Counted from the stretch's first letter, positions 12,850 through 13,808 are shown. The stretch is 64,000 nucleotides of DNA from Candidatus Parcubacteria bacterium (GCA_026004535.1 BPJI01000002.1:688-64687), one strand, 5' to 3'. Numbers and translations are program-made. Notes: generated by a model from the letters alone, not told the origin.

Positions 12850-12904
12850 AGTTTTAAATTTTTTTGGTTAAACATAATTGTTCATAAAAGAACTGCTTTC
12901 ATAA

Positions 12905-13009
12905 TTAATTGCCTTGTTCTTTGGTTGTGATTTTGAAATAAATCACATTGCCAATTACTACAGCAACTACTGAAAGCAGAAGACCGATTAAAACAGATTT
13001 TGCGTCCAT
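12905..13009 (-). CDS. 34-aa hydrophobic mini-protein (MDAKSVLIGLLLSVVAVVIGNVIYFKITTKEQGN)
   Basis: I translated it by hand; it is below the ORF-track cutoff. It shares the GC-richer codon style of the adjacent gene and has a single TM helix. Confidence 0.3.
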   Translation of the reverse strand: MDAKSVLIGLLLSVVAVVIGNVIYFKITTKEQGN

Positions 13010-13161
13010 AATTAAAAAGTTTTTAAGGTTAATAATTGCAATACAAATTTAGGTAAATTAAATACACAATAAAATTTTTTGCTGCTTTTATTTTTGTAGT
13101 AATATCATTTAGTTTTTAACCTACCGCCATTTTAATTATTAACAATACAAATGTGCTGCAA

Positions 13162-13196
13162 TTTTTTTTTTTTTTTTTTTTTTTTTTTTTTTTTTT
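13162..13196. repeat. poly(T)35 homopolymer
   Basis: 35 consecutive T counted in the sequence. Confidence 0.95.
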
Positions 13197-13267
13197 CTGA
13201 ATTAACGTTCTAACTAAATATCAACCTACGACTCTTATTAACTAAATAAATTAAATTATAATATAAA

Positions 13268-13291
13268 TATTATTATTATTATTATTATTAT
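13268..13291. repeat. (ATT)8 microsatellite
   Basis: atattattattattattattattatc. Confidence 0.9.
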
Positions 13292-13293
13292 CT

Positions 13294-13510
13294 TGTTAAT
13301 AACTCAAAAAAAATCAAAAATTTTTTTGCTAAACAACTGATAATAAATTATTTAAACGCTAAAAGTTATTAACAATTGCTGTTAATAACTTGTTAATAAG
13401 TGCCATTTTATTGTTAATAACCTGTTAATAATATGTTCATTTTATATTTGTTTCAAAATAAGTAACTTAAATAAAAAAATTATTTTTGTATTATTAAAAT
13501 TGTTAATAAA
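13294..13510. promoter_or_regulatory. iteron array of at least seven copies of the mini-palindrome GTTAaTAAC/GTTAtTAAC; candidate replication origin or multi-operator region
   Basis: Copies at 13294, 13365 (inverted), 13381, 13392, 13412, 13423 and 13501. Two pairs lie 11 bp apart. GTTATTAAC-n7-GTTAATAAC forms an inverted repeat. The array sits at the divergence point of the two strand blocks. Confidence 0.5.
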
Positions 13511-13529
13511 GTTTTCTAAATTTTAAAAT

Positions 13530-13808
13530 ATGGAAAATTCAGAATTAAAAAGGAAAAATTTCTTGATAAAATCTATTCAAGATTATATTCAAGCAATTGA
13601 AAATGAAATAAATGAGAAAAAATTTAAAAGTTATGATGATTTATTGTTAATATACAAAAGGATTGAATACATTGAAGCATATATTTTATTCTCGAACGAT
13701 ATTTTTGATGAAAATAATGAAAGTGATAAAGAGTTAAAAAAAGAATTGATTAATAAATTAAAAAAACTAAATGAAGAGTTGTATAAAAGAATTGAGATTA
13801 ATAAATAA
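13530..13808 (+). CDS. hypothetical coiled-coil protein (92 aa)
   Basis: First ORF of the plus block, rich in charged heptad-like sequence. Confidence 0.45.
   Translation: MENSELKRKNFLIKSIQDYIQAIENEINEKKFKSYDDLLLIYKRIEYIEAYILFSNDIFDENNESDKELKKELINKLKKLNEELYKRIEINK

Follow-up and report, generated by a model that had tools for sequence, protein, structure and literature searches.

The question raised by this locus is whether a gene-free, repeat-rich region, from which the genes of a mobile element are transcribed in opposite directions, is the site at which the element starts its replication, a control region for its first genes, or both. The region lies in a stretch of 64,000 nucleotides (nt) attributed to a Candidatus Parcubacteria bacterium (GCA_026004535.1, BPJI01000002.1:688-64687), hereafter called the window, from whose first letter all positions are counted. 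The original prediction, made from the sequence alone, described a cluster of mini-palindromic iterons and proposed a replication origin or a control region. Comparative evidence backs this proposal in its general form and gives the repeats a different identity: they are best understood as an asymmetric variant of the DnaA box, rather than as private mini-palindromic iterons. On balance, we lean towards the view that the region, here termed the hub, is a cluster of variant DnaA boxes joined to AT-rich DNA suited to unwinding, which would act as an origin dependent on the DnaA of the host and possibly also control the divergent first genes.

The hub occupies positions 13010-13529 (520 nt), between the minus-strand genes, which end at 13009, and the plus-strand genes, which start at 13530, and transcription diverges across it. 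A gap of 680 base pairs (bp) had been assumed at this gene-poor point of divergence; its non-coding part is reduced to 520 nt, since an open reading frame (ORF) of 34 amino acids (aa) occupies 12905-13009. The GC content of the hub is 16.2%, against 27.6% for the whole window, and is the lowest among all the gaps of at least 197 nt in the window. Furthermore, the hub is the only repeat-dense gap, the other large gaps of these 64 kb having no comparable repeats.

The unit that is repeated in the hub, in its invariant core, is not a 9-bp palindrome: it is the asymmetric 9-mer TGTTAATAA (reverse complement TTATTAACA). Eight exact copies are found, all within 13136-13509, six of them on the plus strand (13294, 13380, 13391, 13412, 13423 and 13501) and two on the minus strand (13136 and 13366), and only three further copies are present in the remaining 63.5 kb of the window. 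The full palindrome GTTAWTAAC occurs at four places only (13295, 13365, 13381 and 13413), and the palindromic C is missing from half of the eight copies. Hence the repeat cluster noticed at first is real, but three of the seven palindromes GTTA(A/T)TAAC then listed lack the final C, four of the seven coordinates (the other three being right) were off by one, and the exact copy at 13136 had been overlooked. The cluster is far beyond chance. In the whole window there are 11 exact copies against 4.4 in shuffled sequences (0 of 100 shuffles reach 11), and the enrichment suggested earlier as a check, here computed for the window only, amounts to 8 copies in the 520-nt hub against 0.11 expected under a first-order model of the hub (0 of 20,000 simulations reach 8, the maximum being 3). 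That the motif forms no second cluster elsewhere in the window had been correctly stated.

The arrangement of the copies is regular. Two pairs, 13380/13391 and 13412/13423, have a period of exactly 11 bp, as originally described, given by the 9-mer and a 2-nt spacer; in chromosomal origins, DnaA protomers bind cooperatively to boxes that are spaced in this way. Tandem pair 1 (13380-13399, plus strand) reads TGTTAATAAC-T-TGTTAATAA and tandem pair 2 (13412-13431, plus strand) reads TGTTAATAAC-C-TGTTAATAA, the latter being followed, in register, by a degenerate third unit, TGTTCATTT, at 13434 on the same strand. The opposed box at 13366-13374, on the minus strand, stands head-to-head with the box at 13380 across a 5-nt spacer, and the resulting inverted pair GTTATTAACA-attgc-TGTTAATAAC (13365-13389) corresponds to the larger inverted repeat of the original prediction. 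The other exact copies are the boxes at 13136-13144 (minus strand, TTATTAACA on the plus strand), 13294-13302 and 13501-13509 (both on the plus strand), the last one preceding by 20 nt the ATG of the gene that opens the plus block. Two boxes with one mismatch complete the set: GGTTAATAA at 13027-13035 (plus strand), 18 nt before the ATG with which the 34-aa gene of the minus strand starts, and a minus-strand box at 13235-13243, which is TTATTAACT on the plus strand.

The one relative of the element that was detected is L228, a 20-kb Logan contig. It encodes the one homologue found of the 284-aa P-loop protein of the window (48% identity) and shares with the window about a dozen proteins, with 26-49% identity and in rearranged order. 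Its divergent hub (395 nt) presents the same order of features as in the window, namely T-rich tracts, an AT-repeat, TTGTTAATAACTCAAAA, an A/T run and the array. The box at 13294 is identical in L228 together with its flanks (TTGTTAATAACTCAAAA), tandem pair 1 is exactly kept, tandem pair 2 has TGTTAATAT-CT-TGTTGATAA as its counterpart, and the A8-TC-A5-T7 run originally pointed out, and found again at 13306-13327 of the plus strand, is partly kept (CTCAAAA...TTTTTG). As a whole, the array of L228 reads TGTTAATAAC-T-TGTTAATAT-CT-TGTTAATAT-CT-TGTTGATAA (four boxes, preceded by TGTTAATAACTCAAAA), and the alignment (A1) shows boxes that are exactly kept in DNA that has diverged around them. The left neighbour of the L228 hub is the gene of the replicative helicase DnaB. 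Conservation and dnaB neighbour together form the strongest local argument that the boxes may be under selection and connected with replication. Beside the window hub, Pfam and PHROGs revealed no recognisable replication gene. Neither a megablast of 11000-16000 against a phage collection nor scans of IMG/VR, for which the DnaB of L228 and the 264-aa and 276-aa proteins flanking the hub served as queries, gave any match; homologue searches returned only the query for the 264-aa protein and only distant helicase-domain matches for a 2190-aa protein, and a metagenome scan returned one distant contig (L230), which is without a hub. L228 also clarifies the segment 25041-25524, where two small ORFs, of 76 and 80 aa, lie in an apparent gap of 592 nt after an 856-aa gene: both are conserved in L228, and the segment is therefore coding and not a second non-coding hub.

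Which protein could read these boxes is suggested by the distribution of the motif. The 9-mer, read as TTATTAACA, departs from the DnaA box TTATCCACA in its fifth and sixth positions. In three mycoplasmas (Mycoplasma hominis, M. mobile and M. arthritidis), this 9-mer is found upstream of dnaA and bears the annotation of a putative DnaA box (PMC2751442). T5-like phages have paired “DnaA*” boxes in their untranslated iss region, and TTATTAACA is among the commonest of these (bioRxiv 10.1101/866236). A literature search by sequence returned mostly GUIDE-seq oligonucleotides.

In viral contigs, the exact tandem TGTTAATAAC-N-TGTTAATAA was found in 107 IMG/VR stretches (contigs of 21-54% GC), against 5 for a composition-matched permuted control, which agrees with our own rough estimate of about 4 stretches by chance. 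None of these loci encodes a homologue of a window protein and no protein family is common to more than 10 of them, which makes a co-travelling phage protein an unlikely binder and indicates a host factor. The tandems are intergenic in 109 of 114 viral cases and in 122 of 123 genomic ones, in loci that are 75-83% coding. Moreover, at distances of up to 200 bp from the tandem the canonical box TTATNCACA is over-represented, by a factor of 9.4 in viral loci (19 for the strict form TTATCCACA) and of 4.7 in genome loci, against about 1-3 for control motifs. The variant stands in 11-bp register with TGTGGATAA, TGTGTATAA or TGTTGATAA in the dnaA-dnaN origins of Clostridia and in several viral loci. 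Hybrids are frequent: TGTGGATAA-NN-TGTTAATAA and the reverse order TGTTAATAA-NN-TGTGGATAA are each present in at least 120 IMG/VR stretches, with some alternating arrays, and so is the canonical tandem in the same format, TGTGGATAAC-N-TGTGGATAA (at least 120). The abundance of hybrid modules in both orders indicates that variant and canonical 9-mers are partners in one module. The variant is absent from the in-register neighbours of canonical-canonical tandems, so that hybrid arrays form a subset of their own.

Some viral loci deserve a description of their own. In L008 and L030, regions longer than 1 kb and free of genes combine variant boxes, canonical boxes and separate iterons. The L008 region (1399-3294 of a 62-kb IMG/VR contig of 21% GC) is 1.9 kb long and holds six copies of TTATTAACA, canonical boxes TTATGCACA and TTATTCACA, many copies of TTATCAACA and a separate repeat family, GATAATCATTCTCATT, resembling Fur boxes or iterons. 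In its architecture, this region comes closest to the hub of the window. In the jumbo viral contig IMGVR_UViG_3300047157_000197 (275,970 nt), the same tandem occurs near both ends (L058 and L078) with near-identical flanks, which suggests that it lies in a terminal repeat. Seven loci of one viral family carry, directly upstream of the genes of the small and large terminase, a seven-unit array with an 11-bp period, composed of TGTTAATAA twice, TGTGAGTAA, TGTGGAAAA, TGTTAACAA, TGTTAGTAA and again TGTTAATAA.

In bacterial chromosomes, the scan of one genome per species gave, among the matches listed, 119 loci with the tandem, in at least nine phyla, and about 45% of them adjoin dnaA, dnaN, parA or hemE. 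In particular, dnaA flanks the tandem in 34-36 of the 119 loci, with the tandem either 29-380 nt upstream of the dnaA start or, in the dnaA-dnaN origins of Clostridia, about 100 nt past the dnaA stop. The other flanking genes, after clustering, are parA/soj (12, in Bacteroidales), dnaN (11), hemE (3, in Rickettsiales), a classical marker of the alpha-proteobacterial origin, and rnpA (3). The unit TGTTAATAAC is letter-perfect across genomes ranging from 24% to 61% GC. In twelve Bacteroidales loci the tandem lies 108-133 nt upstream of parA, and its presence there may mark the chromosomal origin of this order. In three loci, two of which are among those twelve, it opens a four-unit array with an 11-bp period (TGTTAATAA, TGTTAATAA, TG(G/A)AAATAA, TGTTCACAA). 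In six loci of Sphingobacteriia (Pedobacter and Mucilaginibacter), the tandem is followed, at a distance of about 45 nt, by a conserved element some 40 nt long, cccgatattgaaatcatcaagaacgacgtactttgacag, which precedes a PIN-PhoH-like gene and gave no match in Rfam.

If the boxes are DnaA sites and the hub is an origin, the remaining features can be arranged in a plausible sequence of events. Host DnaA would oligomerise on the plus-oriented boxes (13294 and 13380-13431) and open the T-rich, AT-rich DNA on their 5' side, that is, the region of the (TAT)8 microsatellite and of the T35 homopolymer; a DnaB-type helicase would then be loaded and the element would replicate from the hub. Both tracts had been noticed originally and were found again on the plus strand, T35 at 13162-13196 by TRF and the supposed (ATT)8 as (TAT)8 at 13268-13291. 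The latter ends 2 nt 5' of the box at 13294, and L228 has its AT-repeat in the same position. T35, which may belong to the region to be unwound, on its T-rich strand, is the sole homopolymer of at least 11 nt in the window. The same DNA is represented by an independent Logan contig that terminates within this run, in A26, and thus the long T run is real while its exact length is uncertain. Segments of 100 nt with 9-10% GC, together with T35 and (TAT)8, adjoin the hub boxes, and comparably AT-rich 100-mers are also present elsewhere in the window. The position of T35 and (TAT)8 5' of the plus-oriented boxes reproduces the orientation of E. coli oriC, in which the T-rich strand of the unwinding element is 5' of box R1 when this is written as TGTGGATAA. 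Finally, the outermost boxes (13027 and 13501) could bring the divergent first genes under the control of DnaA, a role that is likely, in addition or as an alternative to initiation, because these boxes lie 18-20 nt from both start codons.

Several observations, however, weigh against a DnaA-dependent origin. The canonical box TTATNCACA does not occur in 13010-13529 and is not enriched in the window (5 copies against 5.2 expected). Relative to the E. coli consensus of Schaper and Messer, TT(A/T)TNCACA, the change of C6 to A would be expected to weaken the binding of DnaA. Elsewhere, most tandems are single pairs that adjoin a promoter or a start codon, an arrangement also compatible with a role in regulation alone, and a T-rich strand bias 5' of the tandems of other loci was looked for and none was consistent. 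The argument from orientation is accordingly a weak one, drawn from the window and L228. The skew inflection proposed earlier as a check was found in part: the minimum of the cumulative AT skew (13453) falls in the hub, but that of the GC skew (9913) is 3.1 kb to the left, and both are confounded by the switch of gene strand. In this respect, the minus-strand genes at 9546-13009 have a slightly positive GC skew, unlike the remainder of the minus block. The core TGTTAA-N5-TGTTAA, present at both tandem pairs, also fits the direct-repeat sites of OmpR-family regulators. Moreover, many proteins of the window are unannotatable, which leaves room for an initiator encoded by the element itself, and the element, a contig of 69,155 nt in the metagenome-assembled genome KatS3mg096, is assigned to Candidatus Parcubacteria by binning.

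The nearest alternative accepts the boxes as DnaA sites and denies that the hub is an origin, which would instead control the divergent promoters, titrate DnaA in the manner of datA, or be an injection-stop/first-entry region like that of T5, ahead of anti-restriction genes. We consider this unlikely, though deserving serious attention. The distance of 18-20 nt between boxes and both first start codons speaks for it, as do the many viral tandems that directly adjoin start codons or are followed, after 55-75 nt, by promoter-like sequences, the array adjoining the terminase genes in one viral family, and the paired DnaA/DnaA* boxes, TTATTAACA included, that T5-like phages keep in a non-replicative untranslated region; furthermore, the plus block of the window opens with genes of a defence-evasion type (a 2190-aa Strawberry-notch-like helicase, methylases and a weak ArdA match). 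Nevertheless, the box cluster coincides with the most AT-rich and repeat-rich DNA of the window, the sole such region in 64 kb, and in L228 the hub adjoins dnaB. Origin and non-replicative roles of DnaA are, in any case, not mutually exclusive. A more far-reaching possibility, which we judge distinctly improbable, is that TGTTAATAAC is a pan-bacterial origin element in its own right, read by a particular state of DnaA (e.g. cooperative ATP-DnaA) or by a second conserved factor, and copied by phages of many lineages to couple their replication or early transcription to the initiation cycle of the host. The element of the window, which has the variant only, would be its extreme case, with (TAT)8 perhaps acting as a single-strand track similar to a DnaA-trio and T35 as the unwinding element.

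Two other readings replace DnaA with a different protein. Response regulators of the OmpR/PhoB family read direct repeats such as TGTTAA-N5-TGTTAA, TTAA-N7-TTAA or TTAACA-N5-TTAACA, and the hub might be a signal-controlled operator array for a host regulator of the ArcA, CtrA or PhoP type: the 11-bp head-to-tail TGTTAA repeats match the architecture of ArcA sites and the spacings of CtrA and PhoP, the Rickettsiales matches beside hemE could be CtrA sites and those of Xenorhabdus and Hartigia ArcA sites, and in L167, from a Candidatus Zambryskibacteria genome (Parcubacteria group), the tandem (5361-5380) is not at dnaA, and the gene that ends 57 nt before it encodes a response regulator of the OmpR type. 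Yet no such regulator is common to Nitrospirota, Spirochaetota, Firmicutes, Lentisphaerota, Saccharibacteria, Bacteroidota and the other phyla that have the same 10-mer at dnaA, dnaN or parA; instead of being limited to a lineage, the identical tandem adjoins genes of the origin region in at least nine phyla, and the variant and TGTGGATAA can replace each other within the same module, as hundreds of viral loci show. This makes a response regulator a very unlikely binder. As for the iterons or operators originally proposed, read by a Rep-type initiator or a repressor encoded by the element, the clustered and phased repeats at a divergent hub are what such a protein would use, and the small neighbouring proteins without known function (92, 156, 276 and 236 aa) could bind DNA. 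However, the same exact 20-mer recurs in chromosomal origin regions and in over 100 unrelated viral contigs, which have no protein in common with the window, its units are of 9-11 bp rather than iterons of 17-22 bp or palindromic operators of 14-20 bp, and neither a Rep nor a helix-turn-helix (HTH) family was found beside the hub with Pfam and PHROGs. The repressor-operator array once suggested fails likewise, the flanking genes giving no HTH protein match in these scans, and an element-encoded binder is, to us, the least probable of the readings weighed here.

Minor candidates were also considered. A site for IHF, with one mismatch to WATCAANNNNTTR on the reverse strand, was rejected since IHF is absent from many of the phyla involved, and possible -7 boxes of the Bacteroidota type (TAnnTTTG), seen by eye, were dropped, as they had neither a suitable -33 spacing nor a known host to support them. 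A scan for sigma-70 promoters and terminators gave no more matches than shuffled sequences.

The element that carries the hub appears to be a phage-like mobile element. Its recognisable proteins are the 2190-aa helicase, three DNA methylases, a CCA-adding enzyme, a YqaJ exonuclease, RecT, three peptidoglycan hydrolases (M15 and M23 peptidases and a GH108 lysozyme) and the weak ArdA match, nearly all the others being without a family match. Pfam and PHROGs scans of about 70 window proteins revealed no initiator, polymerase, primase, terminase or capsid protein; the lack of a match for the first three is consistent with a dependence on host functions. The first gene of the minus block (12905-13009) encodes the 34-aa protein, hydrophobic and of a membrane type, which is called as a gene also on the independent Logan contig, and the first of the plus block (13530-13808) encodes the 92-aa protein, for which Pfam and PHROGs gave no family match. 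No gene of the element has a Shine-Dalgarno sequence, tRNA and Rfam scans of the window gave no matches, and neither did PDB sequence searches of three proteins.

What makes the hub of wider interest is that it provides a concrete candidate origin, with a predicted dependence on host DnaA, for a 69-kb and almost unannotatable element binned with a Candidate Phyla Radiation bacterium. The occurrence of a non-consensus 9-mer in a fixed 11-bp tandem, in chromosomal origins of many phyla and in hundreds of unrelated viral contigs, where it often alternates with the canonical DnaA box, suggests that one class of initiator sites is under-described. Sites of this kind could aid the prediction of origins in AT-rich or uncultured genomes and flag mobile elements that are plugged into the replication cycle of their hosts.

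Compared with known systems, the hub has several features in common with bacterial chromosomal origins. As in the low-affinity arrays of E. coli oriC and in the dnaA-dnaN region of Firmicutes, where boxes form oriC and dnaA-promoter arrays, it has 9-mers with 2-nt spacers in one orientation plus an opposed box. It shares with the duplex unwinding element and box R1 of E. coli an AT-rich, T-rich region 5' of boxes oriented as TGTG/TGTT, and with many phyla the same variant tandem that they have at dnaA and dnaN. Unlike chromosomal oriC, it has no canonical TTATNCACA and no dnaA gene nearby and is carried by a phage-like mobile element, and its candidate unwinding DNA consists of T35 and (TAT)8 rather than of 13-mers. 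The Mycoplasma origins mentioned above (PMC2751442) have the identical 9-mer TTATTAACA in one or two boxes on the chromosome, whereas the hub has eight on a mobile element, the boxes being putative in both. The iss of T5-like phages is similarly a long untranslated, repeat-rich phage region with about eight paired DnaA/DnaA* boxes upstream of the first-expressed anti-host genes; its pairs, however, are 3 bp apart, in large inverted repeats inside the terminal repeat, and it is thought not to be an origin (bioRxiv 10.1101/866236). In the hub, the spacing is 2 bp and no large inverted repeats were found. With the ArcA, CtrA and PhoP boxes the hub has in common a head-to-tail TGTTAA or TTAA core and an 11-bp period, but the phylogenetic spread of its motif and the pairing with canonical boxes do not suit a lineage-restricted regulator. 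Lastly, P1 oriR, F, pSC101 and lambda differ from the window hub, at which neither a second repeat family (Rep iterons) nor a rep gene was found, and yet in all of them a mobile element recruits the DnaA of its host through boxes beside an AT-rich region, as proposed here. Origin and control regions built from DnaA boxes are known from mobile elements, and the hub of the window would add one more to them.

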